A stretch of 64,000 bases of DNA. It comes from a virus (taxonomy: Duplodnaviria > Caudoviricetes). Numbering within the stretch: the first letter of the stretch is position 1; every line of letters begins with the position of its first letter. The stretch lies in the IMG/VR virus record IMGVR_UViG_3300005805_000084, positions 2,120 to 66,119 of that record; one strand, given 5' to 3'. This document shows, piece by piece, positions 1,063 through 52,859 of the stretch. The position numbers and the translations under genes are program-made. The notes beneath the pieces are model-generated. The model made no database searches and had not been told where the DNA came from. It saw only the letters and a program-made list of their open reading frames with translations.

Positions 1063-1068
1063 GCGCCA

Positions 1069-1102
1069 AGGCCCCTGGGAGACTCCTGGGGGCCTTTTTA
1101 TT
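1069..1102 (+). terminator. Rho-independent terminator between convergent genes
   Basis: 12-bp stem aggcccctggga/tcctgggggcct followed by a T run. Confidence 0.8.
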
Positions 1103-2411: not shown

Positions 2412-2795
2412 ATGAACCTCGAAGTCTCCACCGTCACTGTCGCCAACAAGCCCATTCGTTTCGGATCGAACAAGGCCGGATGCGGCCTCGTTATCGTCAC
2501 CCAGAAGAAGCTTGGCGAGATCACAGGCCTCAAGGGGGCCGCCCTCAAGCGCGCCCACTTTGAGTACCGCCTCGAGGCCGGAAAGGCCTTGAATGCCGGT
2601 CTATCGGCCGGAATGGCATCCGGCGAAATTATCACCAAGAGCGTGGTGCCCACCAAGGGCGGTGGGATTCGTGCGGTCTTCGATCGCGTGGAGTCCCTGA
2701 AGTCTCCCGCAGAGTCGGTGTCCGCCAAGGACAAAGAGATCGCGAGGCTCCAAGCGGAACTCGCCGCACTGCGCGCCACTCAGGCCGCCAAGTGA
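2412..2795 (+). CDS. Hypothetical early protein (MNLEVSTVTV...), C-terminal coiled coil
   Basis: AC-rich leader, strong C/G-ending codon bias. Confidence 0.8.
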   Translation: MNLEVSTVTVANKPIRFGSNKAGCGLVIVTQKKLGEITGLKGAALKRAHFEYRLEAGKALNAGLSAGMASGEIITKSVVPTKGGGIRAVFDRVESLKSPAESVSAKDKEIARLQAELAALRATQAAK

Positions 2796-2822
2796 GCCAA
2801 CAAGAGCCCCGAGTCTCGGGGC

Positions 2823-2883
2823 TTCCTTGTCTCCCCCTATGGCTGGGGGACTGATGAAGGCCCAGCAAGGCCGAAACAAGGAA
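2823..2883 (+). ncRNA. Type III hammerhead ribozyme, predicted cleavage after C2831 (GUC)
   Basis: Stem III ttccttgt/acaaggaa, GUC, stem I tccccc/ggggga, CUGAUGA core, stem II ggcc/ggcc, GAAA; one extra A after the CUGAUGA core. Confidence 0.85.
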
Positions 2884-2891
2884 CACCAGTA

Positions 2892-3296
2892 ATGAATCTC
2901 GGAACACGCAACACGATCAGGTCCAAACTGTCCGCCTGTGCGGCACTCCGCCTCTTGGCGGATGGTGGGTATGGGGACAACAGGTGGCTGGAAACGGCCA
3001 AGGTGCTGGAGACTGAGGCCCACGCCTTGTGGCGCGAGGCTGGCCTCGAGGACTGCCCGACTTGGGAGTTGCTCATCCTGTTGGATGAGCCGCTCTCCAT
3101 TCTCAGGGAGAGACAGCGCGCCTTGAACGTTCTAGTCTCGGACGTAATGGGCCACGCTAGGCCCGAGAAGTACCCAGTGGAATACGTGGAGCGAGAGCTC
3201 TATGGAACGAGCCTAATCGCAACCACCGAAAGGTGGGCGGAGATCAAGGCCCTCGCGGCCGAGGTGCGCGAGCTCGAGGCGGAGCTGGAGGCCTGA
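2892..3296 (+). CDS. Hypothetical early protein
   Basis: 134-aa ORF directly after the ribozyme. Confidence 0.7.
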   Translation: MNLGTRNTIRSKLSACAALRLLADGGYGDNRWLETAKVLETEAHALWREAGLEDCPTWELLILLDEPLSILRERQRALNVLVSDVMGHARPEKYPVEYVERELYGTSLIATTERWAEIKALAAEVRELEAELEA

Positions 3297-3302
3297 TTAC
3301 CA

Positions 3303-3352
3303 CTCCGAAGCCTTCTCCTCAGGGGGAGGCTTCTGGGAGGCGATCATGCCTC
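3303..3352 (+). repeat. Structured intergenic motif copy 1 (CTCCG-11 bp stem-CTGGGAGGCGATCATGCCTC)
   Basis: Flanks identical to copy 2; stem sequence differs but pairing is preserved. Confidence 0.8.
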
Positions 3353-3368
3353 GTTCAACACCACACAC

Positions 3369-3659
3369 ATGAGAACTGCAAACACCACCAAGGCCGTCAG
3401 CGTACCCACCGAGTCCTCCTACGAGGGACACCCCACTCTGGTGCTTCCGAATCCCGACGATCCCACCAAGCCAGGGATCTCCTTCGGAGCGAGGAAGCTC
3501 CGAGCGGTTCTGGCCCACCTCGCCGAGGTGAAGGCCTTCGTCGCCAAGGCTCAGGCCGCGCCCAAGGTCCCCAATGGGGACGTCAATGCGGTGATCGCGT
3601 CCCTGAGGTCCTCCGGCAAGTCCGCCGAGGAGATTCTGGCCACCCTGCTCTCGAAGTGA
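3369..3659 (+). CDS. Hypothetical early protein
   Basis: acacacac leader, typical codon usage. Confidence 0.75.
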   Translation: MRTANTTKAVSVPTESSYEGHPTLVLPNPDDPTKPGISFGARKLRAVLAHLAEVKAFVAKAQAAPKVPNGDVNAVIASLRSSGKSAEEILATLLSK

Positions 3660-3665
3660 TCTTCG

Positions 3666-3716
3666 CTCCGACTCCATCCCTGAAAGGGGGTGGGGTCTGG
3701 GAGGCGATCATGCCTC
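3666..3716 (+). repeat. Structured intergenic motif copy 2 (GAAA-capped stem)
   Basis: See copy 1. Confidence 0.8.
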
Positions 3717-3733
3717 AAACAACACACACCAGT

Positions 3734-4081
3734 ATGAACTACGCAGCACTTCTGTCGGTGCTTATCAGCATCGAATCCAATGGGAATGACCATGCCATCG
3801 GAGATGGCGGAGCGGCCCGTGGGCCATTGCAAATCCACAAGGCCGTGGTCTCCGATGTGAATCGGATCAGCGGGAAGCGGTTCGATTGGGTCCGAATGAC
3901 CAATCGGGCCGAGGCTCGGGAGGTGGCCACCATTTACCTGAAGCACTACGCCACGCCTCAGCGACTTGGGCGTGCCGTTACCCCTCAGGACGCGGCAAGG
4001 ATCTGGAATGGCGGGCCGATGGGCTACAAGTCCAAGGCCACCCTGCCCTATCTGCAGAAGTTCAACGCCAAGCTCAAGTAA
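3734..4081 (+). CDS. Lysozyme-superfamily muramidase (destabilase/i-type or SLT-like)
   Basis: IESNGNDHAIGDGGAARGPLQI and WNGGP motifs; possible alternative start at 3710. Confidence 0.75.
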   Translation: MNYAALLSVLISIESNGNDHAIGDGGAARGPLQIHKAVVSDVNRISGKRFDWVRMTNRAEAREVATIYLKHYATPQRLGRAVTPQDAARIWNGGPMGYKSKATLPYLQKFNAKLK

Positions 4082-4084
4082 CCC

Positions 4085-4267
4085 ATGAACAAGTACCTGT
4101 GTTTCTATCGCGGCAAGACCCTCCAAGTGGAGGCGGAAACCTCCTACGAGGCTTCTAGGAAGGCCGCCAAGATCTTCAAGGCCAAGCGGCCTTGGGATGT
4201 CTCCGTGATCCTTGGCGAGAATGCCAAGGGTTCCGTCACCCACTCACCCCAAAGCATCACACCATGA
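4085..4267 (+). CDS. Hypothetical protein
   Basis: Tightly packed 60-aa ORF. Confidence 0.7.
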   Translation: MNKYLCFYRGKTLQVEAETSYEASRKAAKIFKAKRPWDVSVILGENAKGSVTHSPQSITP

Positions 4268-4341
4268 TCGAAACCATCGGTCGAATCCTTGTCCTGATCG
4301 TCATAGCCGCCGCCTTCTGGTTGGCTTGGGTGATCTTCTGA
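4264..4341 (+). CDS. 25-aa single-TM peptide (MIETIGRILVLIVIAAAFWLAWVIF)
   Basis: ATGA coupling, hydrophobic; below the ORF track cut-off. Confidence 0.55.
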   Translation: MIETIGRILVLIVIAAAFWLAWVIF

Positions 4342-4369
4342 TAGCAACCATAACACAACCACTAGAACT

Positions 4370-4750
4370 ATGCGTAAAGTCACAAGAGGAGTCTGCATCG
4401 CCTTCCTAGAAGGCCTCCCAGCGCGGGTGGATAACACCGACACCGATGGGGTAACCCTTCGGCTGCACCGCAACGCCATCGCCCAGTGGCGTATGGACGG
4501 GCTTTGGATCACCACCGCTGGGTGGGACACCCGAACCACCTTGGAGCGCCTCAACGGCCTGATGCTGCTCTGCCAGTTGAAGAATCCAATCCCCGCCAGC
4601 TCGAGGACTCCATCCATCTGGATGAATCGGGGCAAGCTCATGCTTGGTTCCGAGCCTTGGGATGGCGGCTGGACCCGCATCGAGGTCAATGTGGAACGTA
4701 GCCTGAAGCACCTCGCCCTGATCGCGAGCCAGCAGAAGGAGGCCGCATGA
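4370..4750 (+). CDS. Hypothetical protein
   Basis: ORF in packed operon. Confidence 0.7.
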   Translation: MRKVTRGVCIAFLEGLPARVDNTDTDGVTLRLHRNAIAQWRMDGLWITTAGWDTRTTLERLNGLMLLCQLKNPIPASSRTPSIWMNRGKLMLGSEPWDGGWTRIEVNVERSLKHLALIASQQKEAA

Positions 4751-4917
4751 AGATCACCGGACACTGGTTGCCATTCTCGAAGTGCGAGCTTCTGGAGCTT
4801 CTGGAAGCTGCCCGCCTAGCCCTCAGGGACGACAAGACCGCCGAGGAGCTGGACCTGAGCGACGAATACCTCAAGGAGCTGGCCGAGCGGCTCCACCAAT
4901 ACCTGAGAGAGCCATGA
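4747..4917 (+). CDS. 56-aa hypothetical protein (MKITGHWLPFSK...)
   Basis: ATGA overlaps at both ends; not in ORF track. Confidence 0.6.
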   Translation: MKITGHWLPFSKCELLELLEAARLALRDDKTAEELDLSDEYLKELAERLHQYLREP

Positions 4918-5285
4918 ACAAACCAATACATCGACGAGCCATGAAGAAAATCAAACCACTGTCCAAACGGACACTAGCAGAAGGCAAGAGGATCTATCTG
5001 GACCAACAGCTTGCCACGTGGAAGGCAACAGGCGTCCACCCTTCCGTTCAGCACGCCAAGGAACTGTTCCCAGACTTGGGCGCAATGATCCTTTATGAGA
5101 AGGGGCGGACCCCAAAGCACCGGACAGTTCAAGGTGGCAGGTGTTGGCGTTACACGTTGCTGCCTGACGGGAAATGGGCGTGCTATGAGCAAGCCCACCA
5201 TCGCCAGCCGCGCAATGGAAGGCGTCCAGTGCTTGTTGGATGGAGCAAGGTCACAAATCAACCGCTGTTCCTCTGGAATCTATGA
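4914..5285 (+). CDS. Hypothetical protein, paralog A
   Basis: Aligns by eye over about 95 aa with 5282-5614. Confidence 0.75.
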   Translation: MNKPIHRRAMKKIKPLSKRTLAEGKRIYLDQQLATWKATGVHPSVQHAKELFPDLGAMILYEKGRTPKHRTVQGGRCWRYTLLPDGKWACYEQAHHRQPRNGRRPVLVGWSKVTNQPLFLWNL

Positions 5286-5614
5286 GCCGATGGAACCCAG
5301 CCAAGTTGAAGCAGAAGAACACCGAGCTTGCCCTCTGGAAGCTCGGATGCGAGCACCCCGCCATCGAGCGGGCCAAGGCGTTGTTTCCGGACGTTGCTAC
5401 AATCATGTTGTACGAACGTGGCCGGACACCCAAACGCAGGACCATCGAGTCCGGTCGTCGCTGGCGATACCAGAAACTCACCACTGGAGAGTGGGTAAAG
5501 GTCGAGCAGAAGCACTATCGGCAACCGTTGAACTGCAAGCGTCCGGTCCTGATAGGTTGGCGAGAGGGAGCCAATAAGATCGGCTCGCTTGCCACTTTCA
5601 TCTGGAACTTGTGA
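5282..5614 (+). CDS. Hypothetical protein, paralog B
   Basis: LFPD...LYE.GRTPK.RT..SGR.WRY...RQP.N..RPVL.GW...F.WNL shared with paralog A. Confidence 0.75.
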   Translation: MSRWNPAKLKQKNTELALWKLGCEHPAIERAKALFPDVATIMLYERGRTPKRRTIESGRRWRYQKLTTGEWVKVEQKHYRQPLNCKRPVLIGWREGANKIGSLATFIWNL

Positions 5615-5620
5615 CATACT

Positions 5621-5635
5621 AGGTGTAATACACCT
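5621..5635. promoter_or_regulatory. Palindromic operator GGTGT-N3-ACACC (site 1)
   Basis: aggtgtaatacacct, intergenic. Confidence 0.8.
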
Positions 5636-5643
5636 TCAGTCCC

Positions 5644-5868
5644 ATGACATCCACACTGACATTCAACCTGCCAGACGATGCCGCCGAGCACCATGCGGCG
5701 ATCCACGGCATGGCCTACCGCCTCGCGCTGTCCGAGATCCGTGAGCAGATCCGACAGAAGCTGAAGTACGGGCACCACTTCCAGTCCCCTGAACTGGCAC
5801 TTGAGTGGGCGCACAAGATGGTCATCGACGTCTGCCAAGACGCTCTGAACCCAGACGAGGTTCCCTGA
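5644..5868 (+). CDS. Hypothetical protein
   Basis: 74-aa ORF after operator. Confidence 0.7.
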   Translation: MTSTLTFNLPDDAAEHHAAIHGMAYRLALSEIREQIRQKLKYGHHFQSPELALEWAHKMVIDVCQDALNPDEVP

Positions 5869-5952
5869 ATCACCGGCCGAGGGTGTCCTCGGCTGTTCAT
5901 GCCTGTCTCCGACGAGTGTCGGCGGCAGGTTTGAGCATTCAAACCAAACACT

Positions 5953-5967
5953 AGGTGTAAAACACCC
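5953..5967. promoter_or_regulatory. Palindromic operator (site 2)
   Basis: aggtgtaaaacaccc, 9 nt before the ATPase ATG. Confidence 0.8.
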
Positions 5968-5976
5968 ATCAGTACC

Positions 5977-6966
5977 ATGAAGTCATCAGAAATCATCAAG
6001 CGCATCGCAACCCTCATGCGTCACCGCAAGCCCTTCCTCCTTACGGGGTCTCCTGGGCTGGGCAAGACCGACTGCATCGTCGAGGCCGCCAAGCAGGCTG
6101 GTCTGCGATGCATCATCAGCCATCCTGTCGTGTCCGACCCGACCGACTACAAGGGCATGCCCGCAATCGTCGACGGCAACGCCCACTTCCTTCCCTTCGG
6201 CGACCTCAACCAACTCATCGAGGCGGACAAGCCCACGCTCTTCTTCCTCGACGACATCGGTCAGGCTCCGACATCGGTTCAGGCCGCACTCATGCAGCTG
6301 ATCCTCTGCCGCAAGGTCAACGGCCACGCCATCAGCGAGCACGTCACCTTCGCGGCTGCCACCAACCGCCGATCGGACAAGGCCGGTGTCGGCACGTTCA
6401 TCACGCCACTGCTCGACCGCTTCGACCAGATCTACGAGCTGGAGTTCGACTCCAGCGACTGGGTCGGCTGGGCCTTGCAGAATGGTCAGCCCGAGCCGCT
6501 CATCGGCTTCGCTCGCTGGCGTCCCTCGCTCATCAGCGACTTCAAGCAGCCCAAGGACGACCTGTCCAAGTGCCCCACGCCTCGGTCGGTTGCCAAGCTG
6601 GGCGACCTCATCAACATCGGACTCGACGACTTCGACACCTACAAGTCGGCGTGCGGCGAGGGGTTCGCCACCGAGTTCGCGGCCTTCCGCAAGACCCGCG
6701 ACCACATGCCGGACATCGACGGCGTGCTCAAGGATCCGGACGGCAGCGACCTGCCCACCCGTCCCGATGTCCTCTACGCCACCGCTGCAGCGCTGGCCTT
6801 CCGCGTCACCGCAGGCAACTTCGGCAACGTCCTGAAGTACTCCGAGCGGATGTCCCCTGAGTTTCGGGTGATGCTGGTCCGCGACTGCATCGCCAAGTCC
6901 AAGTCGCTGGAATCCTCTCCGGCCCTCACCAAGTGGCTCATCAACAACCAATCAGTAATCCTGTGA
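5977..6966 (+). CDS. AAA+ ATPase (MoxR/AAA_5-like)
   Basis: Walker A GSPGLGKT, Walker B LFFLDD, AAATN sensor region. Confidence 0.9.
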   Translation: MKSSEIIKRIATLMRHRKPFLLTGSPGLGKTDCIVEAAKQAGLRCIISHPVVSDPTDYKGMPAIVDGNAHFLPFGDLNQLIEADKPTLFFLDDIGQAPTSVQAALMQLILCRKVNGHAISEHVTFAAATNRRSDKAGVGTFITPLLDRFDQIYELEFDSSDWVGWALQNGQPEPLIGFARWRPSLISDFKQPKDDLSKCPTPRSVAKLGDLINIGLDDFDTYKSACGEGFATEFAAFRKTRDHMPDIDGVLKDPDGSDLPTRPDVLYATAAALAFRVTAGNFGNVLKYSERMSPEFRVMLVRDCIAKSKSLESSPALTKWLINNQSVIL

Positions 6967-10634: not shown

Positions 10635-10907
10635 ATGCTATCACCGAAGACACAGCAGGAGGTCAGCGAATGCGTGCGGGAGAAGATGACCAGCAACTTC
10701 GCGGACATGAAGATCCGCATCGAGCCGATGCGCGAGGCGCTCAGGAAGTTCGAGCAGTCGGTCAACGATCGCTCACTGGACGGCATGCATCACAGCTTGG
10801 CCGATCTCTCAAACACATCACTCAACTGCAGGGCTAGGCTCCAGTACATGCGTGGCATCTGGGCCGTCCTCAGAAACGTACGTGACAAGGACCCCATCGA
10901 TGAATGA
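10635..10907 (+). CDS. Hypothetical helical protein
   Basis: 90-aa ORF after operator. Confidence 0.7.
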   Translation: MLSPKTQQEVSECVREKMTSNFADMKIRIEPMREALRKFEQSVNDRSLDGMHHSLADLSNTSLNCRARLQYMRGIWAVLRNVRDKDPIDE

Positions 10908-12174
10908 AGGAGCTTTTCATGCGGCTGTGGGACATCGCGTTGATCTTGCTAGAGATCGCAATCACGCTGCTCACTCTGAGCCTCTTCTCGATCTTCCAGT
11001 GACTCCGATTGCAGGCAGATTCAAACCTGCATCCATCCCGTTTAACTCGGAGCAGCTGGCATCGCTGCTGCCGAAGTACTACGAGATGGACTTCGTCGGT
11101 CTCACCTACAACACCATCGCGTTCAACAAGGAGGCGCTCAACCAGTTCCTCAAGTGGATGCGGAAGGGTGGCTACGAGTCGGTCACAGTCGAGATGCTGC
11201 ATGAGTACATCAAGTTCATGCAGGACCGGCACACCACGATGATGGCAACCAACAGGTGGGGTCGCGTGAAGCGGTTCTTCCTGTGGATGGAGCGGCTTGG
11301 ATACATCGAGCGCAGTCCACATCACGTGGTCAGGAACAGGGTGACTGAGAACATCTCAAGTCACGTGCGACCGATGACTCTGGAGGAATACCTGAAGCTC
11401 AAGCAGGTCTCCGAAGGTCACTGGCTCAACTGGATCTACACGCTGGCTTGGAACAGTGGCATGGCCCTAGTCGACTGCTGCGCGCTGCGCTGGGGAGACA
11501 TCAATATGGACCAGTGCTACATCAGCGTTCGCCGCAAGAAGAGCAAGGCCGCTGCGGTCATTCCATTCTCGCCATCAGACGAGCTTGGGAAGGCGATCGA
11601 GGCTATGGCTCAGGTGAAGCACGATCCGGATGACTTCGTGTGCCCAGAGGCTGGCGGCAGGCTGAGGGATGACACCAGAACCGGCCTGATCAGGAGGCTG
11701 TCACTGAACATGTTCCGCAAGGCGGGCCTGTCCAAGGGCGTGTCGATCCACTCGATGCGCCGCTCCTTCATCACGATGTTGGCCAACTCCAACATGAACA
11801 CAGTGATGGCATCGAAGATCAGCGGACACACCAGCCCGAAGATACTGGCTAGGTATGTGTTCCCAGACCCGAACGTCCTGAGAAAGGGCGTTGCTGAGGC
11901 CAAGGAGAAGTTCGGAATGGACAACTTCGCATACGTGGAGCCGTCCAATGTCCGAGTGAAGGGAAGATCCATAGCTTGGAAGCCCAACAGCCACTACATT
12001 GTGAAGAGCGGCAAGGGGCTGAAGCTTCCTGATGGAACACCCATCACATTTGTTTTCACCTCCGCAGTAGCGGAAGGTAGAAAGGCGGTCGTCACACCCT
12101 GTGACATCGAGATGAACCCTGTGGGAAACCTGCAGATCATCGCCGACATCACAGACGTGAGGCCGTTCGTTTAG
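10900..12174 (+). CDS. XerC/D-like tyrosine recombinase, first catalytic Arg absent, extra C-terminal domain
   Basis: SAM-like core-binding region, NSGMALVDCCALRW, IHSMRR, SGHTSPKILARY; start uncertain. Confidence 0.8.
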   Translation: MNEGAFHAAVGHRVDLARDRNHAAHSEPLLDLPVTPIAGRFKPASIPFNSEQLASLLPKYYEMDFVGLTYNTIAFNKEALNQFLKWMRKGGYESVTVEMLHEYIKFMQDRHTTMMATNRWGRVKRFFLWMERLGYIERSPHHVVRNRVTENISSHVRPMTLEEYLKLKQVSEGHWLNWIYTLAWNSGMALVDCCALRWGDINMDQCYISVRRKKSKAAAVIPFSPSDELGKAIEAMAQVKHDPDDFVCPEAGGRLRDDTRTGLIRRLSLNMFRKAGLSKGVSIHSMRRSFITMLANSNMNTVMASKISGHTSPKILARYVFPDPNVLRKGVAEAKEKFGMDNFAYVEPSNVRVKGRSIAWKPNSHYIVKSGKGLKLPDGTPITFVFTSAVAEGRKAVVTPCDIEMNPVGNLQIIADITDVRPFV

Positions 12175-12766: not shown

Positions 12767-13162
12767 TTGAAGGACTTCATCGGAGAAACGCTCGCGGCAT
12801 TCCCACCGAATCTGATCCGAGTTCTGGCACGAACCGGAAGGGGAGCCGCAGCGAGGAACATGACCCACGACGAGGTGGCTCAGCGTTCCGGCCTCAAGAG
12901 ATCCAAGATCCGCAAGTTGTCCGCGCTTCAGTCATGGGACACGGTCGCCATAGCTGATGCGGACGCCTTCCTGAAGGGCTGCAACGTGACGCTCAGATCC
13001 CTATGGAAGCAGCGGGCATTCCTAAGGCGTAGCCTCGACCCAAGGGTGACATCAACCCCGCTGGCCTACGCCGTGCGCGGGAAGCGGGTCCCAAGGCCGC
13101 CATCTGCAGAGGCTTTGGTGCGCGCAGCTTTGAGCCGCTCCTCCCGCCGCGTGTCAGCCTGA
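12767..13162 (+). CDS. XRE-like HTH protein
   Basis: MTHDEVAQRSGLKRSKIRKL; start uncertain (TTG). Confidence 0.55.
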   Translation: MKDFIGETLAAFPPNLIRVLARTGRGAAARNMTHDEVAQRSGLKRSKIRKLSALQSWDTVAIADADAFLKGCNVTLRSLWKQRAFLRRSLDPRVTSTPLAYAVRGKRVPRPPSAEALVRAALSRSSRRVSA

Positions 13163-16100
13163 GCTTCATCGGCCTGAGCTTGCGCAGCTTGGTACGGATC
13201 GTTCGGATCGCCTTGGGCTTGCGGGTGAGAGCCCTGATCCGACGCATGGCGGTCATTCCACCGCCTCCATCCCGCTCCGCCTTAGGCTTGATGCCGTCGA
13301 CCAGCTTCTGAATCGCAACGTCACCGCGATCAAAGACAGCCCGCTGCTCTGGGCTCATGCGCGAGCGCAGTCCAATCTTCTCGTCCGAAGACAGCATGCG
13401 ACCGAACGCCTTCTGCTCTGGGAACTGGGACTTCAGCGACGCCTTTACCGCAGACCAAGGATCGGCCACGCCGGTGGCAGCCTTCACTTCCGCAGCCTTG
13501 TTCAGCAGCTGCTGAGCACCAGCATTGTCGCCTGCCGCACTGGCAGCGACCGCACGCCGTATCAGAGAGCTGAACTGGGTCGGCTCCATTCCGGCACCGC
13601 CGCCACTGGTCTTGAGTTCTAGGCTTCCCGCATTCCTAGAGGCAACGCGAACCGCATCTGAAACCGCATCGCGAGCAGCAACAGAAGGGATCCGATTGAG
13701 CGCTGGGCTGAGCACCGGAAGCGTTCCACGCACAGCAGATAGCACCGCTCCAGCGTAGTCTCCAGTGGCGGTTGCGTACTTGAGTGATCTCGAAAGCGTC
13801 GAGATTGCACCAAGCTGCGGGCTGAGCTTTGTCAGGTCAGTGAGGTCGGCTCGGTTCTTCTGAGCACCAACCAGACCTGCAGCAATCTCTCCCCAGTAGG
13901 GGACCATTCCGGCAATCGCAACAGCACCAAGCTTGGATATGTTCTTTGATGACGGATCTGAGATGACGTCCCTGAATGTGGTCTGCGAATACGGCCTTCC
14001 AGTAATGATGCCATAGGCAACACCCTTCGCCTCGTTCGCTGGGATTCCAGCCAGCATCAACAGCAGGAGCAGCGCAACGAGTGCTGCGAGTTGAATTGCA
14101 CCAGCAATGACCTTGTCCTTGCGATCTGTGCTGATTGAGGAAATGCCCTCAAGGGTTCCAAGCCAGTTCCCCATCCAGCCAGGGAATCCGATGAGGAACC
14201 GTATCGCCCTTCCGAATCCGCCACGTGTCTTGATGATGTCGGCTCGAGCGGAATCAATGGGAAGGTTGGAAGCTGCCAGACCACGCATCAACACATCTGC
14301 TTCGGCATTCTGATCAGCGATAAGCGGAACCGAGTAGATGTCCTGACCGGATTTGCGGGCCGCTTCGACACGCTTGTGGTAGTCAGCCATCAGGAACTCA
14401 ATGCTTCCAGCAGGAACCAGCATGTCCTTCAGCATGATCAGCTGCTCAGGCGTCCAGCCAGCGTTCTCAAAAGCTTCCTGAGGAGTGATGACATTGTCTG
14501 GGTTGGCCCAGTTGTCCCAGCCAGGGTTGCCTGACTTGGAACGAATCTGCATCAGGCGCTCACCGGCCATGAACATCACAGCCAGATGCTTCTGCAGTGT
14601 CCTCGTGATCTCGGTGTTGGCGAGCTCGTCAGCCTTGGGCTGCATGCTCATCATAAACTCCCGCAGAGAGGCTACCGCTCGATTGGAGAACATCTTGTCG
14701 ATCGCCCTAGACGAGGCGGATTCGACATCTCCAGGCTGACGAACCACGTTGCCGTAGGTTCCCATCTCGGAGATCAGCTTGGCGCTTTCAAATGGGCTGA
14801 CGGTTTCAGGTTCCCATCCACCAAGCTTGGCAATCTGAGCAACACGAGCGTATTCGTCGGAGACCCTGATGAACCTCTCAGCAAAGACACCGAATGCCCT
14901 TCGGTTCTTGCGCATGATTGCAGACAGGGTCGGGTTGGTCGCGATCGCCCTCTCGACAAGACGCAGCACAGGCTTTGTACCAGCAGTCAGGAGCGCGCTC
15001 GCCATCGCCCTAGGATAAGACTTGAAAGACAGGCCTCGAGTCATCGACCTAGCCACAACATCTCCACCAGCTACGCCGAACAGATAGTTCGTGATCGGAA
15101 CCATCGGCGTGGTGAGCAGGAGGATCTTCTGGGCAAGACCGACTTGGCCTAGAAGGCCGCTGTCGTCGTGGACATTGATGCCCTGAACCCGCTGCGTGAA
15201 AGTGTCGCGAAGGGTTTGGACTAGGCTCAGCAGCGTCTCTGCCTTGGATCGATCGATGTAGAACTTGCCGCTCTTGATGTCTGCCTTGAGCGAATCCGGA
15301 TCGGTCCTCATCCGCTCGCCCATGTTGACGATGTACTGCTTCAGAGCGGACTCAACGTCCATCATCTGACGAGCGATCTGAATCAGGGAAGGAATCTGTG
15401 CGGCAACCAGAAGTCCGTTGATCTCTGCGTCAGTGGACAGCGTGTACGAATAGAACACCCCAGGTGCCACCATCTTGCCACGAGGCTTGGTGAACTGGTT
15501 CAGCCCATCCACAACGCTGACGATTGCGGTTTGGGATTTATCGTTTCCACCGCTGATGGAACCGTTCGAGCTCTCTTCGACGTATTTGCGAGCTTCCTGC
15601 TGGCTGACGAGCTTCTCTTGGTCGATCGCGATCGAGAACTTGCGGACCTCATCGAGCAAGCTGCGCTTGATATCGGACTCTATGTCGGACATCGACGCAG
15701 CTGCAGGACTCATGTCGGCGATCTGACTGACAAGCTCGTCGGTCGTGGTCGGTAGCGAAGATGGGTTCTTTCGCCACCGTATCGCCAGCTGCTCGTAGAT
15801 CTTAGCGTAGTTACTGGTGTTCTCGAAGTCGCTATTGGTCTCAGCAACGTACCGCCTCAGGACCTTGTTGAACGCAGTTGGATCATCGAAGATGGCCTCG
15901 ATAGCCTTCAGCTGAGCGTCCTCATCCTTGATGCTGTTGACCGCGTCTAGGACCTTCTGAACGTAGAAGCTCGGCGATCCGGCGTAGATCTCCTTAAGTA
16001 ATCTGCGAGGGGTTGTGGCAGCTCCTGCGGCAAACGCTCTCCGGAGTCGATTGCCTTCCCTGATGAGCGTCGGGAAGTACTTGACGACTCCGCCAACAAA

Positions 16101-19100
16101 ATCACCGCTTGTGACCGCGTACACCTGATCCGAGAAGCGTGCCATCAATTCGATGGCAGCAAGGTCCTCCTTGGTCACGACATGCCCGAACGGAGTGGCT
16201 TCCCCAACCTTGATCGCTGGATCTCTGTCGTTCTGACGGGAGTTGAGCAGCTCATTGGCAACCTCTTCGCGCCAGACCATTGGATCCATCCCAGGATGAG
16301 ACTGGATAGCACGATACTGAGCGATCTTGAGAGCCTGAGCTCCAAAGAACTTATTGGCTTTGACTGCGGACAGCTTCTTCTCGAGCGAGTCTTGGATGGC
16401 GTTGAGCAGAGACAACCTCTTGCCCATAGGCCCAGGAATCATTCGAGCCAGAGCCATCCGATTCACCAGAGCTTTGACTCCAGGGAATCTCCTACCAAAG
16501 ACGAATGGGTTCAGCCATCCAGCGGTAAGCGCAGGAGACGCAGTCTGGGCACCGTAGTTCCGCAGCCTCTCGCTGAGCTGCTGAAGAGACTCAAGCTCCA
16601 CTGGATCAACAGCAACAGTCCCTGAGGCCAGCTGCTGAAGGCGTGCCTGCACTGCGGACACAAGCTTGTAGAAGTCTATGCCAGCCTTTGTGTCGGCAGC
16701 GACATCGAGCTGAGGATTGAAGAAGTATTCCTGACCATCAACAACCCAGCGCTCGCCACGTCCACGTGGATCAACTGTTCCAAGGATCTCTGGGTTGGAG
16801 TAGCCAAGGTTCTTGGTAGCGGTCGCGTACGAATCCTTGAACTCGGGAGATGCAACGACGCTCTCGAGCAGAGCGATCTGCTCAAGCGTAGCTGCGAACT
16901 CGTTGTCGATCCGTTCGATCTCAAGGTTCAAGGCCTTGAGGCGCTCCAACTCAGCCTCCTTTGTGGACCTCTCCCTATAGTATCGCTTTGCGAAATCCTC
17001 TATCGACACCTTCTTGGACTTCGCAGCAGGAGAAGTGGATGCCAGCGCGAAGTAGTCCTCGAAGGCTTTCCTGTCTGCCGCAGCGAGATCGAGATTCGCC
17101 TTGTAGTCCTTGATCGCCCCAAGCGAAGAGGCGAGACCACGATAGGACTCAAGAACTGAACGCTTACCAGAAGCCGGAGGAGTCAGAAGCTTTGCGATCG
17201 TCTCTGGAAGGACCTTGCCGACGAGCACGTTGTTATCGACGACGTACTTGATAATCGCGTCGTTGTTGCCAGCAGCCTTGGATGCAGCGATGACCGAATC
17301 AGGAACCGCATCGGAGATGATGTCTATCGCCTTTGAGACGTCCGCATTCTGCTTCTTGATGTAGAGGGCCGCGTTGGTTGCGTTGACCTTGGCCTGCTCC
17401 AGAGCCGCATCGACTCCAGCGAATGTCCGCAGCTCGTCTCGAATGTACTTGGAGTAGTCCTTAAGCAGTGAGCGCTGTGCGTTGTCAGCAACCTGAGCCG
17501 CAGACTTCGCCGCAACCGCTTCGGCAAGCATTGAGATAGTGCGAGGCGATGTCATCTGCTCTCGCAGTGCCTCGAGCTTGGCATTTTTCTTGGCGAGAAT
17601 GTCTAGGATGTTCTTGTTCTGATTCCACACCGCATAGCTGAAGATACCCTTGTTCGGATCGTTTGGATTGATCGACGACAGCGGAATGGATGTCGTTGAG
17701 ATTTCGTTCAGTGACTTCAGCCAGCGCATCCCACGCTCAGCATCTTTAGAGAGACCAGCAAGCTGTGCTCCGAGCCCTGCGGGAAGGATCCCGCGCTGCA
17801 CCGATGCCGACTGCTCAATGGTTGTGACCTGCGACTGCTCAAGTCCTGGCCTGCGAGTTTCGGATTCGACCTGAGCTCGCGTCTTGAAAGGAGTCTTCGA
17901 GTATCTGATGTCCGCTGACTGTAGATTGAACCGCTGGCTCAGAGGGATGACGTTGCCGGAGTCGTCATAGGTAACTGGATCAGCCAGCTTGGCCTGTCTG
18001 GATGCTTTAATGAGAATCTCAGGAGCCCCATACGAAAATCCTCCAGCACCATCGGCAATTACAGCATCTGCATTCGACCTGCTTGCCAACTCGTCAAACG
18101 CTTCACCCTGTTCAACAGAACCATAGTCTTCGGAGAGCTCCTGAGAAACATCACGAAGAGCCCTTTGAACATCAGCGGTTCTAGCGTCGAGGAGGTTTTC
18201 TGCCTTCAGGTAGAACCTGCGAGGCGTTCCGTACCTCCTCGCGTAACCGATGTCTGGAGTGAAATAGAAACCCCTGCCCAAATTGCCGCCGTCATATTCG
18301 TCGTATTCAAGTTCCTCTCCCCTGCTTTCAGCCTGCTCGGCGAGTGATAAGAATCTGTTAAACGCAGTCTTTGAGGCGTGATAACCAGACAATGCATACC
18401 CAGCAAGGCGGGCAGCCTCATCTACGAGGCGCTGCGCGGCACCGATGTCTCCAGCTCTAACAGCAGCCAAATACTCCGCATCAAGCGACTGTATTGACTG
18501 AGTTGCCGACATTGCGGAAAGCGTCTCGACCACCTCGATCCCATTGACGGTGTATGTCGTCGACGGGCGGGACACACGCGCATGAACCTTGGCCACCGCT
18601 TTGGCAGCGATGTACTCAGCGGCGAGTCGAGTCAGCCGAACACCCTTGCTGTTGGCCCACGCAAGCACGCGACCGGTGATGCGCTGGAACCAGTTGCGTC
18701 CCCTCCAAGCCTTGGCCAGAAGCTCGACCTTGCGGGCGTCCTCTTCGCGAGAGACTGCGGCAGGATCGTACTCAAGTCGTGCAACCTCAGCAGCGATCTC
18801 CGCAGCCTCATCTGGCGTGACCTGTGAGATCTCAGCGGCAAGCTCTCCATTCGCGTTCGCGGCTTCGGACTCCTCGTGAAGCAGGACCCTGTCGATGTCC
18901 GCTGCGGAGGAGACCTTTGCGGAGTTGATCTCGATCCTAACGATTCGACCGTCCGCTTTGCTGATGAAGATGCGGCCATCGAAGTTCGCGTTGGGGTCGT
19001 TCACCACACGAACCAATCCGCCAGCTTGAATGCCGAACCGAGAGAGAAGACGATCCTCAACAGCAGCAACAGTCAGTCCGGTTGCTGGGCCGACATTGCG

Positions 19101-22100
19101 GCTGAGGAACTCAAACGGCTCCTCTGAATTGCTTTCATACTGATCTGCGATGTAGCCAAGGCCATCAGTACCAGTCTTAGAGTAGACGTCCCACGCCTTT
19201 TCAAACCCTTCATTGAAGAGCTGCTGCCTTATGTCTGGATTTAATGAGGCCCGCCCAAGAGCCAGCCTGATGTCTTTTTCCTCAACCTCAGAAAGCGCCC
19301 TGTCGAACACCTGCCTGAAGACGACCTTGTTCACAGGCCTTCCTAAGTTGTTGCGCTCGGCAGCTGCGGCGTAGTTGGTCAGCTTCTCAGAAAGGCTGCT
19401 ATTGAGATTGAATGCATCGCCCCTTCCTCCAATAGAAGCACCAACATCAATGCCACCAACTGTGGAAGGAACTCCAGTTTCAGACATCGGGCTTCTCTCG
19501 AAAGCGCCAACACCAATGCCACCGAGTGCCTCCGTCTCTCCTCCATCGTCGGCCTGCCTAGTCGGAGCGGCAGTCTTTGAAAGCGGATCAGTGGCTGCCC
19601 ATCCGATGTAGTCCAGTATCAGTTGGCTTTGTGCCTTTTTGACAAGCAAGTTTGCGCTCTGTTCTGGATTCTGAAGTCGCCTTACAATCGATTGAAGGAC
19701 CCTCTTGGTCCACATCTTGGAGATCTTCGTGTCGTCTATTAGTAGACCTGGATAGTTCCTGCTGAGAGTTATCGCGATCTGCTTCGGCCCTTCCAAGATT
19801 TGGAATGAAGCGCTTAGGAAAATCCTTTCCTCTCTTGTGAGGTCGTTCTCAAAAGCCTGCCGCTCCGCCTTTTCCTCTTCGGACTCAGAACCAGTTCTGG
19901 TCCTGTTTAAGAGGCTCATGTATCGCTGATACTTGGGAGAGCTCTCGAATGCCTGCAGCGATGCCAGAGCTCCTTCTTGAGCTGGGGTAAGCTTGTCCGA
20001 GGTTTCGCTCTCCTGCTCCTCAGCAACAGGAGCTTCGGTCTTCGTGAATGGGTTCTTGCCCTTCTTGAGCACCACCGTCTCGCCTCGCTTCTTGCCATCG
20101 GCATTGACGCGTTCAACCCGAACTCCGCCGTCAGGAAGCGAAGTAAATGTGAGGCGATCTCCCAGCGAGATGCCATTTGCCTCAGCGTTAGTGACTTTGG
20201 TTTTGCGCTCTGCGGACTTCTTGGTTTCGGACTCAGCACCAACCACCTGAAGCTGAATGGTGACGCTGCCATCTTGGTTGATGCTGGCAGGTCCAGCGAT
20301 CTTGGTTTTACCAAGAGGCTTTCCTTCCTTGAGCGGGCCGAACACCGAAGATTTCAGCTGAACAAAGTCGCCATCCTGAATGGTGGATTCGTCTGCGTAG
20401 ACAATGGTTGTCTGCGCCACAGGAGCAGGAGCTGCTGGAGCTGGGGCTGCGGCGGGAGTCTTCGGTGCGGGTGGCGCGAAAACGGTTCTCGAGACATAAG
20501 CCTCTGGGGCAGCCGCAGCGCCCTGCATATTGATGTTCAACGAGGTAAGAAGCTCGTTGAATGCGTCCGAGGTATCTTCCCTTGATCCAGCCTCCTTCTG
20601 CACGCTGAGCACCTCGTCGTGTTCAGCTTTGGTGATATAGCCCAGCTGAAGAGCCTTCTTCGTTAGACTCTTTAGACGAGCCGGAGACTCAAGGTTGTTT
20701 GCCGCATCGTCTACTTGGTCGATGAAGCTGATGCGAGCGATGTCTTCGGGCTTCTCGGCAGCGATCTTGGAAGGAGCTGGAGCTGCGGATGGCTCAGGTG
20801 TCGAAACTGGCGGCTGCGGCGCGGCTCTCCGCATGTTGATTTCAAGAGAAGACTGGAGCTCGCTAAAAGCGTCTCCTGCGTCTTCCTTGGTCCCCATGTC
20901 TTTCTGGACCCTGAGAATCTCGTCGTGGTCCGCTTTGGTAATGTAGCCAAGGTTGAGCGCCTTCTTCGTGAGTGCTCTGAGCCTTGACGGGGACTCGAGA
21001 TTAGTGACCGCATCGTCTACATCCTCCGAGAATGCAATGCGCTTGGCGTCTGGCTGCGGAGCTGGTTGTACGGCTGGTGCTGCTGGCTGGACTACACCTT
21101 CCGCCCTTCCTGTGACATCTGCTGGAACTTGTCCTTCCCGTACTTCCGCCTGCCGATCCACGCGGCCAGCGCCTTGGGCTCCTTGACCCCCTTCTTGGAC
21201 AGCTGGTTGACGAGCTTCTGGAACTTGGACTGTGGCTTCATTGATCTGTTGGAGTTGGCGTTGTTCTTGTGCGCGAAGATCTCGGAGGCGCTGGGCGACC
21301 TCTGGGCTCATTCCTAGGGTCGGCCTAGGCTCTGGAGCTATCGGCCTCGTGGCGGCCCCGTAGCGGCTCGCCTGAGCGGCTTCCAGTCTGCCTAGAGGAA
21401 CGCTGGCCTGCTCAGCTTGGAGCTGGGCCATAATGCGCGCTTCATCTTCGGCCATCCGGACTCTGGCTGCAGCCTCTTCCTCCTCAAGCTGGGCCATAAT
21501 GCGTGCCTCCTCCTGAGGGTTGGCAACGATACGTCCAGCAGCTTCTGCTCTGCGGGCTTCGGCTTCCGCCCTATTGCGTTCAGCGACCATTCGCCGCACC
21601 GCAGCGCGACGCTCCTCCTCCTGCTGGCTCAGGAGGACTCCAGTGCCAAAGCCTTCAGGCGGGTACTGGCCAATGGCTCGCTCTTCAGGGGCAACCTCGG
21701 CCGGTTGTGGAACCTCTCTGGTGAGCCCCTCTTGCTCAAGGCGTCGGCGTTCAGCGTTACTGAGGCGAGTTCCGGAAGGGCCAGGAATACGCTGACGATT
21801 CAGCTGCCCAAGCAGGATCGCCTCGTCGATTGGGCTGGTGATGCCTTCGGTGGAAATGACATCGCCAATTCCAGACGTGGTGACAGGACGCTCGGAGACT
21901 GGGGTTCCGACCCCAGCATATGTCTGACCGATTCCACCAGCAGGAGTAACCCCCTGAACTGGCTGCATCTGCTGTGACTCAGGAACGAGCAGGTTGGATC
22001 GATCAACAGACCTAGCACCAAGACGACCAAAGTAATCCTGAAGCTCCTGCTCAAGACGAGCCTCTCGGCGAGCATCTGCAAGTCTTCCGACACCAGACTG

Positions 22101-23240
22101 TGTACCGCCTATTGCGCCGCCAATGAAACTACCAGTGAGTCCAGCCTCAATGACCCTAGTGGCCGCCTCTTGTGCGGTTGGAAGACCACCTCCACCAGCT
22201 CCGACAGAGAGCATCGAAACACCCTCCTGCCCAGCTTCTGTGAGGCCTTCCGAAAGAACGCCCTTTCCAACATCTCTAGCAAATCCACTGACACCGCGTT
22301 GCGCATATTGCTGAGCGAGCTCCTGAGCAATGTCACGCGCTTCACGTTGCACAGCACCAGCGGCCCCAAGCACAGGTGGTACAGCTTCTCTGGCTGCACC
22401 TAGCGCTATGCGACGAGCTGTACTAGCTGGGACAGCGCCGAATGTCTCTAGCGCACCAGCAAGAAGACCTCCGCCGATACCTGCCGCACGCTGAAGAGGC
22501 CCTGTTTGTCCTGTAGCATCAACAATTTCTCCGTAGATAGCACCGCCCTCTTGAGGTGCAGTGGTGATAATGGGAGCAGCAGCTCCCGTCAGCGTCTTGC
22601 CAGCTCCAAGAAGTCGGAGAGCTCCTGCGGTCGGGGCAGTGGCGAGGATCTGAGGAATCTGCTGAATTACCTGCGCTCCAAGAAACCCAGGAATATCACC
22701 TGCGGTCTCGATTTCTGAAATCGACTTCGGAGCCGTGGTTGGAATGTCAGCGAGCCCAGACACCTCACTTCCGGCTTCGCGAAGGCGGTTCGACAAACCT
22801 CCAGGGATCGCGGATGCGGCCAGTCCAGCCAAGCCACCAACAACTCCTGGCCCAAACACAGACCCAAGCCTAGCCAACTCAGCGGGACTTTCAGGAGTCA
22901 GCGCGGAAGCGAACTGCAGCGTGCCTCCGGCCATTCGAGCGATCCCAGAACCAAGCTGGCGACCAAACTCAGTTCTCCCAAGGAATGGAATTTCCTTATC
23001 CGACTCGTATGCCTCCAGCGTCTCAAGTCTGTTCTGTGCGGCACGCCCCTCTTCCTTGAGCTGGGCCATCTGGTCCTGAAGACCAGCCCTCTTATTGAGG
23101 TAAGTGATGATGTCAGCATCGCTGGCACCATCAGCCCTTGCTAGTGCAGCATTGAAGCCATAGGTCTTCCCAAGGTGGTCAGCGATCTCCGCATCGCTGA
23201 ATCCATCCTCCCTAGCCAGAGCCCAGTTGAATTGAGGCAT
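12993..23240 (-). CDS. Giant internal virion/ejection polyvalent protein (3415 aa) with ADP-ribosyltransferase and degenerate zincin-like domains
   Basis: Last gene of the ejection block; GYHAS...GRGFYFT...YARRYG...PEIL at about 17900-18500; LLHEE at about 18870. Confidence 0.8.
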   Translation of the reverse strand: MPQFNWALAREDGFSDAEIADHLGKTYGFNAALARADGASDADIITYLNKRAGLQDQMAQLKEEGRAAQNRLETLEAYESDKEIPFLGRTEFGRQLGSGIARMAGGTLQFASALTPESPAELARLGSVFGPGVVGGLAGLAASAIPGGLSNRLREAGSEVSGLADIPTTAPKSISEIETAGDIPGFLGAQVIQQIPQILATAPTAGALRLLGAGKTLTGAAAPIITTAPQEGGAIYGEIVDATGQTGPLQRAAGIGGGLLAGALETFGAVPASTARRIALGAAREAVPPVLGAAGAVQREARDIAQELAQQYAQRGVSGFARDVGKGVLSEGLTEAGQEGVSMLSVGAGGGGLPTAQEAATRVIEAGLTGSFIGGAIGGTQSGVGRLADARREARLEQELQDYFGRLGARSVDRSNLLVPESQQMQPVQGVTPAGGIGQTYAGVGTPVSERPVTTSGIGDVISTEGITSPIDEAILLGQLNRQRIPGPSGTRLSNAERRRLEQEGLTREVPQPAEVAPEERAIGQYPPEGFGTGVLLSQQEEERRAAVRRMVAERNRAEAEARRAEAAGRIVANPQEEARIMAQLEEEEAAARVRMAEDEARIMAQLQAEQASVPLGRLEAAQASRYGAATRPIAPEPRPTLGMSPEVAQRLRDLRAQEQRQLQQINEATVQVPEARQPAVQEGGQGAQGAGRVDRQAEVREGQVPADVTGRAEGVVQPAAPAVQPAPQPDAKRIAFSEDVDDAVTNLESPSRLRALTKKALNLGYITKADHDEILRVQKDMGTKEDAGDAFSELQSSLEINMRRAAPQPPVSTPEPSAAPAPSKIAAEKPEDIARISFIDQVDDAANNLESPARLKSLTKKALQLGYITKAEHDEVLSVQKEAGSREDTSDAFNELLTSLNINMQGAAAAPEAYVSRTVFAPPAPKTPAAAPAPAAPAPVAQTTIVYADESTIQDGDFVQLKSSVFGPLKEGKPLGKTKIAGPASINQDGSVTIQLQVVGAESETKKSAERKTKVTNAEANGISLGDRLTFTSLPDGGVRVERVNADGKKRGETVVLKKGKNPFTKTEAPVAEEQESETSDKLTPAQEGALASLQAFESSPKYQRYMSLLNRTRTGSESEEEKAERQAFENDLTREERIFLSASFQILEGPKQIAITLSRNYPGLLIDDTKISKMWTKRVLQSIVRRLQNPEQSANLLVKKAQSQLILDYIGWAATDPLSKTAAPTRQADDGGETEALGGIGVGAFERSPMSETGVPSTVGGIDVGASIGGRGDAFNLNSSLSEKLTNYAAAAERNNLGRPVNKVVFRQVFDRALSEVEEKDIRLALGRASLNPDIRQQLFNEGFEKAWDVYSKTGTDGLGYIADQYESNSEEPFEFLSRNVGPATGLTVAAVEDRLLSRFGIQAGGLVRVVNDPNANFDGRIFISKADGRIVRIEINSAKVSSAADIDRVLLHEESEAANANGELAAEISQVTPDEAAEIAAEVARLEYDPAAVSREEDARKVELLAKAWRGRNWFQRITGRVLAWANSKGVRLTRLAAEYIAAKAVAKVHARVSRPSTTYTVNGIEVVETLSAMSATQSIQSLDAEYLAAVRAGDIGAAQRLVDEAARLAGYALSGYHASKTAFNRFLSLAEQAESRGEELEYDEYDGGNLGRGFYFTPDIGYARRYGTPRRFYLKAENLLDARTADVQRALRDVSQELSEDYGSVEQGEAFDELASRSNADAVIADGAGGFSYGAPEILIKASRQAKLADPVTYDDSGNVIPLSQRFNLQSADIRYSKTPFKTRAQVESETRRPGLEQSQVTTIEQSASVQRGILPAGLGAQLAGLSKDAERGMRWLKSLNEISTTSIPLSSINPNDPNKGIFSYAVWNQNKNILDILAKKNAKLEALREQMTSPRTISMLAEAVAAKSAAQVADNAQRSLLKDYSKYIRDELRTFAGVDAALEQAKVNATNAALYIKKQNADVSKAIDIISDAVPDSVIAASKAAGNNDAIIKYVVDNNVLVGKVLPETIAKLLTPPASGKRSVLESYRGLASSLGAIKDYKANLDLAAADRKAFEDYFALASTSPAAKSKKVSIEDFAKRYYRERSTKEAELERLKALNLEIERIDNEFAATLEQIALLESVVASPEFKDSYATATKNLGYSNPEILGTVDPRGRGERWVVDGQEYFFNPQLDVAADTKAGIDFYKLVSAVQARLQQLASGTVAVDPVELESLQQLSERLRNYGAQTASPALTAGWLNPFVFGRRFPGVKALVNRMALARMIPGPMGKRLSLLNAIQDSLEKKLSAVKANKFFGAQALKIAQYRAIQSHPGMDPMVWREEVANELLNSRQNDRDPAIKVGEATPFGHVVTKEDLAAIELMARFSDQVYAVTSGDFVGGVVKYFPTLIREGNRLRRAFAAGAATTPRRLLKEIYAGSPSFYVQKVLDAVNSIKDEDAQLKAIEAIFDDPTAFNKVLRRYVAETNSDFENTSNYAKIYEQLAIRWRKNPSSLPTTTDELVSQIADMSPAAASMSDIESDIKRSLLDEVRKFSIAIDQEKLVSQQEARKYVEESSNGSISGGNDKSQTAIVSVVDGLNQFTKPRGKMVAPGVFYSYTLSTDAEINGLLVAAQIPSLIQIARQMMDVESALKQYIVNMGERMRTDPDSLKADIKSGKFYIDRSKAETLLSLVQTLRDTFTQRVQGINVHDDSGLLGQVGLAQKILLLTTPMVPITNYLFGVAGGDVVARSMTRGLSFKSYPRAMASALLTAGTKPVLRLVERAIATNPTLSAIMRKNRRAFGVFAERFIRVSDEYARVAQIAKLGGWEPETVSPFESAKLISEMGTYGNVVRQPGDVESASSRAIDKMFSNRAVASLREFMMSMQPKADELANTEITRTLQKHLAVMFMAGERLMQIRSKSGNPGWDNWANPDNVITPQEAFENAGWTPEQLIMLKDMLVPAGSIEFLMADYHKRVEAARKSGQDIYSVPLIADQNAEADVLMRGLAASNLPIDSARADIIKTRGGFGRAIRFLIGFPGWMGNWLGTLEGISSISTDRKDKVIAGAIQLAALVALLLLLMLAGIPANEAKGVAYGIITGRPYSQTTFRDVISDPSSKNISKLGAVAIAGMVPYWGEIAAGLVGAQKNRADLTDLTKLSPQLGAISTLSRSLKYATATGDYAGAVLSAVRGTLPVLSPALNRIPSVAARDAVSDAVRVASRNAGSLELKTSGGGAGMEPTQFSSLIRRAVAASAAGDNAGAQQLLNKAAEVKAATGVADPWSAVKASLKSQFPEQKAFGRMLSSDEKIGLRSRMSPEQRAVFDRGDVAIQKLVDGIKPKAERDGGGGMTAMRRIRALTRKPKAIRTIRTKLRKLRPMKLRLTRGGRSGSKLRAPKPLQMAALGPASRARRRPAGLMSPLGRGYALGMPAASIGI

Positions 23241-52748: not shown

Positions 52749-52809
52749 GCCCCCGCTTACAACTTCCTCTCCCTAGAGCTGCAAGCCGTTGGGCATCAAA
52801 TGCCTGATC

Positions 52810-52859
52810 GCGGTTTTGTAAACCGTCGGTCGTCGGTTCGAGTCCGACAACTGGCTCCA
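52810..52859 (+). mobile_element. attP core: 3' half of tRNA-Thr(UGU)
   Basis: Anticodon arm GCGGT-TTTGTAA-ACCGT, T arm gtcggTTCGAGTccgac, 3' CCA; no matching 5' acceptor strand upstream; 166 nt before integrase. Confidence 0.85.

Follow-up and report, generated by a model that had tools for sequence, protein, structure and literature searches.

The segment 2823-2883 of an uncultured lake-water phage had been annotated as a type III hammerhead ribozyme lying between two genes. It raises two questions, namely whether it is a real ribozyme, and what self-cleavage might accomplish at that place in a phage transcript. The source is an IMG/VR phage genome of 66,119 bp; the stretch analysed here (64,000 nt, hereafter the window) starts at base 2120 of that record, and positions refer to the window unless a relative is named. 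As to the first question, the segment is a genuine type III hammerhead, kept under selection and very probably active. The hammerhead is a known kind of element, of which this lake phage provides a new example. The second question requires a closer look at what surrounds the motif, both here and in related phages.

The hammerhead motif and its match to known models

On the plus strand the segment reads UUCCUUGUC, UCCCCC-UAUGGCU-GGGGGA, CUGAUGA-A, GGCC-CAGCAA-GGCC and GAA-ACAAGGAA (Table 1), so that every hammerhead element is present, in order and base for base as initially annotated. Stem III, of 8 bp, is open, while stems I and II are capped by loops, which is the type III topology. The cleavage triplet GUC occupies 2829-2831, and A2876 (A15.1) pairs with U2830 (U16.1), a pair that is invariant in the 12 copies described below. 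The other pairs adjacent to the core are U2832-A2850 (N1.1-N2.1) and G2859-C2872 (G10.1-C11.1). The single extra A that had been noticed after the core is borne out by the sequence. The minimum-free-energy fold of 2795-2895 consists exactly of this three-way junction and of the hairpin preceding it (-40.5 kcal/mol, z -2.27).

The placement of the element was also read correctly. It is intergenic and in the sense orientation within a block of genes on the same strand, 8 nt separating the end of stem III from the next ATG, at 2892; the stop codon TGA of the upstream gene is at 2793-2795. The identical start of the downstream gene is called in a relative (L009). A strong hairpin had been reported next to the ribozyme, and it is indeed there, but with bounds 2805-2823 rather than 2804-2824.

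Table 1. Features of the hammerhead locus, its neighbourhood, and the corresponding sites in relatives.
Feature	Position	Strand	Basis or remark
Large structured RNA candidate, ~430 nt, at least 17 helices	1965..2390	+	directly 5' of 127-aa gene
127-aa gene, conserved, function not recognised	2412..2795	+	ribozyme slot at its 3' end
GC-rich hairpin, 8 bp, loop GUC	2805..2823	+	abuts stem III 5' strand; sequence and fold
Stem III 5' strand UUCCUUGU	2823-2830	+	sequence, fold, Rfam match, alignment of relatives
C17	2831	+	predicted cleavage between C2831 and U2832
Stem I UCCCCC/GGGGGA, 6 bp	2832-2837/2845-2850	+	heptaloop UAUGGCU
Core C3-A9 CUGAUGA	2851-2857	+	sequence
Extra A between A9 and G10.1	2858	+	sequence
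Stem II GGCC/GGCC, 4 bp	2859-2862/2869-2872	+	hexaloop CAGCAA
G12 A13 A14 (GAA)	2873-2875	+	sequence
Stem III 3' strand ACAAGGAA	2876-2883	+	sequence
Downstream gene, 134 aa, function not recognised	2892..3296	+	gene at this position varies between relatives
Integrase	10852-12174	+	last gene of the same-strand block containing the hammerhead
Type I hammerheads at orthologous slot	L002:3402-3461, L016:2401-2460, L030:1236-1292, L033:1205-1261
Type-P5 twisters/same-nucleotide motifs	L026:1248-1309, 1798-1848; L028:1246-1306, 1919-1969; L030:1462-1523; L002:4110-4162

The Infernal search against Rfam that had been proposed as a check gave an end-to-end match to RF00008 (Hammerhead_3), with 34.2 bits and E 4.6e-6 on 201 nt; the match stands, but its score is below the gathering threshold of the family (48.5), which is an operational cut-off and corresponds to no structural feature. 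The shortfall is explained by the insert after A9 and by differences in the loops. It should be noted that the filters of Infernal drop the hammerhead match in scans of 64 kb and 14.5 kb; Rfam scans on a large scale thus miss this hammerhead, and a blank result at that scale is weak evidence. In smaller scans of 1-2800 and 3200-6100, no other Rfam families were found. A relaxed type III descriptor (minimum stem lengths of 4, 3 and 5 bp, CUGANGA and GAAA as the core, and U-H at the cleavage site) gave one match in the 66,119-bp genome as against none in 100 dinucleotide shuffles, and about zero such matches are expected by chance.

Relatives, covariation and the ribozyme slot

Relatives of the locus were retrieved in two ways. 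The upstream 127-aa protein has 19 homologues, whose contigs were fetched, a retrieval that is independent of the ribozyme; in addition, viral and metagenome collections were scanned with a pattern in which nothing but stem III and the core was fixed. Five copies served to build a covariance model, with which 12 distinct type III hammerheads were aligned; in this alignment 98.6% of the cells are paired, compared with 42-58% in slid controls. All six pairs of stem I vary on both sides, with 100% of the cells paired, and so do three of the four pairs of stem II, the exception being the invariant G10.1-C11.1; taken together, nine of the ten pairs of the two stems carry changes on both sides. The core, whose conservation at homologous loci the initial annotation had made decisive, is fixed in the 12 copies save for N7, which may be U, C or A. 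After A9, the relatives have an extra A, an extra U or no additional nucleotide. The covariation in relatives shows that the hammerhead is under selection.

The loops, too, retain constant ends. Loop 1 begins with an invariant U and ends with U in at least 90% of the copies, and the 3' nucleotide of loop 2 is A in at least 90%; these ends are consistent with the loop-loop motif described for natural type III hammerheads (PMC2632901), and a tertiary contact between the two loops is putative here. No variation is seen in the inner six pairs of stem III (CCUUGU/ACAAGG), the copies retrieved through the protein included, an invariance that could alternatively reflect a recent spread of the cassette. 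One further candidate (L007) was dismissed as a chance match within a coding region. Among the GTDB genomes, the relaxed hammerhead pattern produced 20 matches, approximately the number expected by chance, and real copies only in L043, a contig of 3.5 kb from the bin of an Acidobacteriota MAG.

The flanks of the ribozyme are as constant in their arrangement as they are variable in sequence. Although the flanking genes differ, each of the 12 type III copies has a GC-rich hairpin, with a sequence that differs and covaries between copies and an end that coincides exactly with the start of stem III, and an ATG at a distance of 5-10 nt beyond that stem. Because the hairpin abuts stem III and the ATG follows so closely, stem III buries the ribosome-binding region of the next gene. 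The 3' strand of the stem contains AAGGAA (2878-2883), or AAGGAG in other copies, which resembles a Shine-Dalgarno sequence and is located here at -14 to -9 of the ATG. Gene leaders in this phage are, however, mostly A/C-rich, of the AACAC type, and have no Shine-Dalgarno sequence (e.g. those of the genes at 2412, 4370, 5977, 8217, 25415 (-) and 36399 (-)), which suggests a host relying little on Shine-Dalgarno pairing. The assignment of AAGGAA as a Shine-Dalgarno sequence is therefore uncertain, and we claim no more than that positions -16 to -9 of the start region lie within stem III. According to folding predictions, the probability that ACAAGGA is unpaired is at most 0.13 in the uncut RNA, as against 0.25-0.98 in the free 3' product. 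The tail cut off by the ribozyme would be held by a predicted -9 to -10 kcal/mol approximately, a helix weak enough to dissociate.

The site directly after the homologous 127-aa gene, to which we refer as the slot, has different occupants in different relatives. L002, L016-18, L030 and L033/34 have a type I hammerhead there; in these variants an AUG is located 1-2 nt past the predicted cut and opens an ORF of 54-83 aa, so that the mRNA left after cleavage would have a 5'-OH end and almost no leader. The slot of L026-28 contains a type-P5 twister-like motif, and in L026 and L028 two twister-type motifs bracket a block of two genes; as for the identification of the twister copies, Rfam scoring was applied to the L002 copy only (59.7 bits), and the others were judged by their conserved nucleotides. 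Finally, L031 (1142-1210) and L032 carry a broken hammerhead, which retains the hairpin, the 5' strand of stem III and stem I and diverges in sequence after CUGAC, as if a recombination junction lay inside the ribozyme. These replacements at the orthologous site imply that cleavage itself is the conserved feature; the position is fixed, and the classes of ribozyme are interchangeable.

In several relatives a second ribozyme is located 0.2-0.9 kb further on, and two ribozymes each are present in L002, L020, L026, L028, L030, L033 and L043. The complete genomes examined, the present one (G000) and G003, contain one type III copy each; in the present genome, neither type I or II hammerheads nor a twister were found. 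The cassette of hairpin, hammerhead and ATG also occurs after genes other than the 127-aa gene (in L019, L024, L043, the first copy of L020 and the second copy of L033). This finding, together with the diversity of the downstream genes, indicates that the cassette marks a mosaic junction.

The upstream module and the phage genome

A candidate for a large structured RNA lies immediately before the 127-aa gene. The approximately 440 nt preceding the gene are 72-78% conserved, with mismatches that show no 3-periodicity, and RNAalifold predicted 115 pairs for the region, with 97% of the cells paired and 48 pairs changed on both sides (3-13 in slid controls). Long stretches of invariant sequence are left unpaired. 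The changes from G-U to A-U or G-C point to an RNA of the plus strand. Its 5' end is not fixed, and further covarying hairpins are present upstream, perhaps as far as ~1900. When 491 nt containing the structured RNA were scanned alone, no Rfam match was obtained at E up to 10. A model of the 3' domain (R2) finds it before the gene in each relative whose sequence extends far enough; four of these relatives (93-104 bits) were outside the building set of the model. Because the structured RNA precedes the gene in the relatives, the slot can be seen as closing a conserved unit composed of a large RNA and a small protein.

The 127-aa gene is truly coding, as the bias of its mismatches to the third codon position demonstrates. 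Searches of its product against Pfam and PHROG gave no match, and no relative was found in GTDB genomes. An AF2 model of the protein (pLDDT 83) had no significant fold match, the best Foldseek E being 0.19; nor were the best VIA Z (4.7) and the ESM Atlas TM (<0.45) significant. The product of the downstream gene (P0002) had no relatives in the viral contigs searched.

As for the genome as a whole, it carries terminase and tail genes and an integrase, and no close relative of the phage was found in the INPHARED collection, either by DNA or by protein. The hammerhead had been assigned to the first early operon, and this part of the initial annotation is not established. The terminal repeat of the record is only 99 nt long, so the start of the record may be arbitrary; moreover, the block ends with the integrase gene.

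Some further observations on the genome can be recorded here. A strong terminator-like hairpin, with 13 pairs followed by UUUAUU, is located at 1068-1096 (+) within a nominal ORF (1002-1439), and between it and the structured RNA approximately 870 nt contain no convincing gene. The hairpin AGGUGU-aau-ACACCU at 5621 and a similar motif near 5950 are repeats of related sequence. A weak tRNA-like match at 52795-52848 (+) covers model positions 10-63, with 26.1 bits compared to a gathering score of 29 in Rfam. An ORF of 3415 aa (12993-23240 on the minus strand), devoid of Pfam or PHROG matches, adjoins the structural genes. This giant ORF, along with a hairpin with a 3-nt loop, suggested an N4-like phage with hairpin promoters for a virion RNA polymerase; such a reading was dropped in view of the missing PHROG and Pfam matches of the ORF, the presence of an integrase, and a predicted +1 nucleotide that is U or C.

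Possible role of the cleavage and comparison with known systems

Our preferred reading, in which we have good confidence, is that 2823-2883 is a functional type III hammerhead that separates the conserved upstream unit from variable genes and probably opens the ribosome-binding region downstream. It would be transcribed within a plus-strand multi-gene RNA of this integrase-bearing freshwater phage, and would cleave itself between C2831 and U2832. Cleavage of a hammerhead after C17 produces a 2',3'-cyclic phosphate and a 5'-OH end. The 5' product would comprise the structured RNA and the 127-aa gene and end in the GC hairpin followed by UUCCUUGUC with the cyclic phosphate, while the 3' product would start with the 5'-OH and two compact hairpins, i.e. 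stems I and II. The 9-nt tail of the 5' product would then melt off the 8-bp helix, and the A-rich ACAAGGAACACCAGUA before the next AUG would become single-stranded. The fate of the conserved upstream unit would in this way be uncoupled from that of the variable downstream genes, whose ribosome-binding region would probably be opened by the cleavage, and the new 3' end of the upstream product would be shielded by the hairpin. These are the effects on RNA stability and translation that we infer for the cleavage. The hairpin at 2805-2823 is likely to be either such a protector of the 3' end of the upstream product or a weak terminator. The idea that the polycistronic mRNA is cut into separate units, advanced in the initial annotation, corresponds to the hypothesis usually put forward for phage hammerheads (PMC3088659, PMC6765202), and the anatomy of the locus fits it.

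It is possible, if considerably less probable, that the ribozyme serves chiefly to make the 3' end of the RNA and 127-aa protein module, liberating a defined RNA or RNP from the longer transcript, any downstream effect being secondary. The single type III copy of G000 and G003, which form no punctuated array, would be well accounted for in this way, and so would the order of structured RNA, gene and slot, kept in all relatives with enough sequence, the interchangeable ribozyme classes at a fixed position, and the hairpin found before the cut in each copy of type III. However, the same cassette stands after other genes in the five relatives listed above, and the fixed spacing to the next ATG argues for a role concerning the downstream gene; in addition, the 127-aa protein has no recognisable fold, and its binding to the RNA is putative. 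With similar reserve, we propose tentatively that the hammerhead, and the type I hammerhead or twister in its place in relatives, could act as a dedicated 3'-processor of an undescribed module of an RNA of ~430 nt or more and the 127-aa protein, freeing the RNA or RNP and switching on the next gene by exposing its start region.

That the GC hairpin and UUCCUUGU form an intrinsic terminator, the hammerhead being a fail-safe insulator acting on read-through RNA, appears unlikely to us. In 12 of the 12 copies, a GC-rich stem does precede an 8-nt tail that contains 5 U, but the U tract is broken by CC, and a simple terminator scan calls the hairpin at 1068-1096 and not that of the hammerhead. Furthermore, no such hairpin stands directly before the type I hammerheads and twisters that occupy the slot in relatives, and neither the conservation of a ribozyme nor the close spacing of the start codon would make sense behind a terminator. 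More doubtful still is conditional cleavage, in which the ribozyme would be no constitutive cutter, but rather a switch responding to terminating ribosomes, a protein or ions. Folding could be slowed down by the extra nucleotide after A9, and by competition between the outer A-U pair of the hairpin and stem III for U2823; for slow phage variants, the suggestion has been made that cleavage is regulated (PMC3088659). On the other side, the core is otherwise consensus, the loops for the tertiary contact are intact, there is no ligand-like extra domain, and the stop codon 28 nt upstream leaves the ribozyme beyond the footprint of a terminating ribosome. Lastly, that the motif arose by chance or is the inactive relic of a decayed ribozyme, for which the Rfam score under the gathering threshold and the truncated remnant known in L031 and L032 might speak, is highly improbable in the face of no descriptor match in 100 shuffles and of the compensatory changes in nine of ten pairs of stems I and II around an intact core in 12 copies, which already contradict a relic.

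What self-cleaving ribozymes accomplish in phages and bacteria has yet to be settled (PMC6765202). The present locus represents a clean natural experiment, because within a small group of lake phages one and the same slot accommodates hammerheads of type III or type I, a twister or a dead remnant. Wherever the ribozyme is of type III, the helix joining the two cleavage products coincides with the region before the next start codon, an overlap that allows sharp and cheap tests of the effect of cleavage on downstream translation and on the stability of the upstream RNA. The noteworthy parts are the single fixed slot, the start region that stem III encloses and, most of all, the large and undescribed RNA. 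The initial annotation mentions neither the enclosed start region nor the other ribozyme classes of the slot nor the RNA before the upstream gene. This neighbouring RNA, which is covarying and matches no family, may be a more valuable lead than the hammerhead.

The present ribozyme resembles the type III hammerheads of RF00008 and of CChMVd (+) in its core (CUGANGA...GAAA), in the cut after GUC, and in having stems I and II closed and stem III open. As in viroid type III forms, stem I has 6 bp and a heptaloop starting and ending in U, and stem II has 4 bp and a loop ending in A (PMC2632901). An extra nucleotide between A9 and G10.1 is likewise present in CChMVd (+), where this A10 lowers the cleavage rate only moderately (PMC1636495). 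Unlike viroid hammerheads, the ribozyme lies within the mRNA of a dsDNA phage, with no circular replicating RNA; the invariant stem III overlapping a translation start region and the score below the Rfam gathering threshold also set it apart from the viroid type III forms. The type-P5 twister (RF02684), which often occurs near hammerheads, takes the orthologous slot in L026 and L028 and the second slot in L002 and L030. It has a different fold from the hammerhead and is absent from the present genome.

Synthetic hammerhead switches, which are engineered constructs, hide a Shine-Dalgarno sequence. A natural parallel is the ribozyme-dependent translation initiation of RNA viruses (PMC13725137), in which the site of self-cleavage is likewise situated just 5' of an ORF whose start region is paired within the closing helix of the ribozyme; those systems are eukaryotic and cap-independent, whereas in the present phage such control of translation is putative. 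Among phage ribozymes, HHphage of the haloviruses HF1 and HF2 is part of an early polycistronic transcript, a 5' end of which was mapped within 3 nt of the cleavage site (PMC3088659). The distance of 13 nt between HHphage and the start codon in HF2 is comparable to the 5-10 nt between hammerhead and ATG found here, but HHphage has insertions in its core and needs high salt, in contrast to the near-consensus core of our copies.

There is also a likeness to the hammerheads clustered in prophage operons near integrases, where they flank non-constant genes (Perreault et al. 2011, PMC3088659). Like these, the ribozyme of the lake phage is sense-strand and intergenic, among small genes whose function is not recognised, and in a block containing an integrase; in its relatives, paired ribozymes flank one or two genes, and the genes so flanked vary. 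The several ribozymes flanking genes by which a punctuated operon is recognised are not found in the present genome, which has one hammerhead and no twister. Unlike the arrays described by Perreault and colleagues, the complete genomes have a single type III copy, which is located at a fixed slot and is tied to a module composed of an RNA and a gene.
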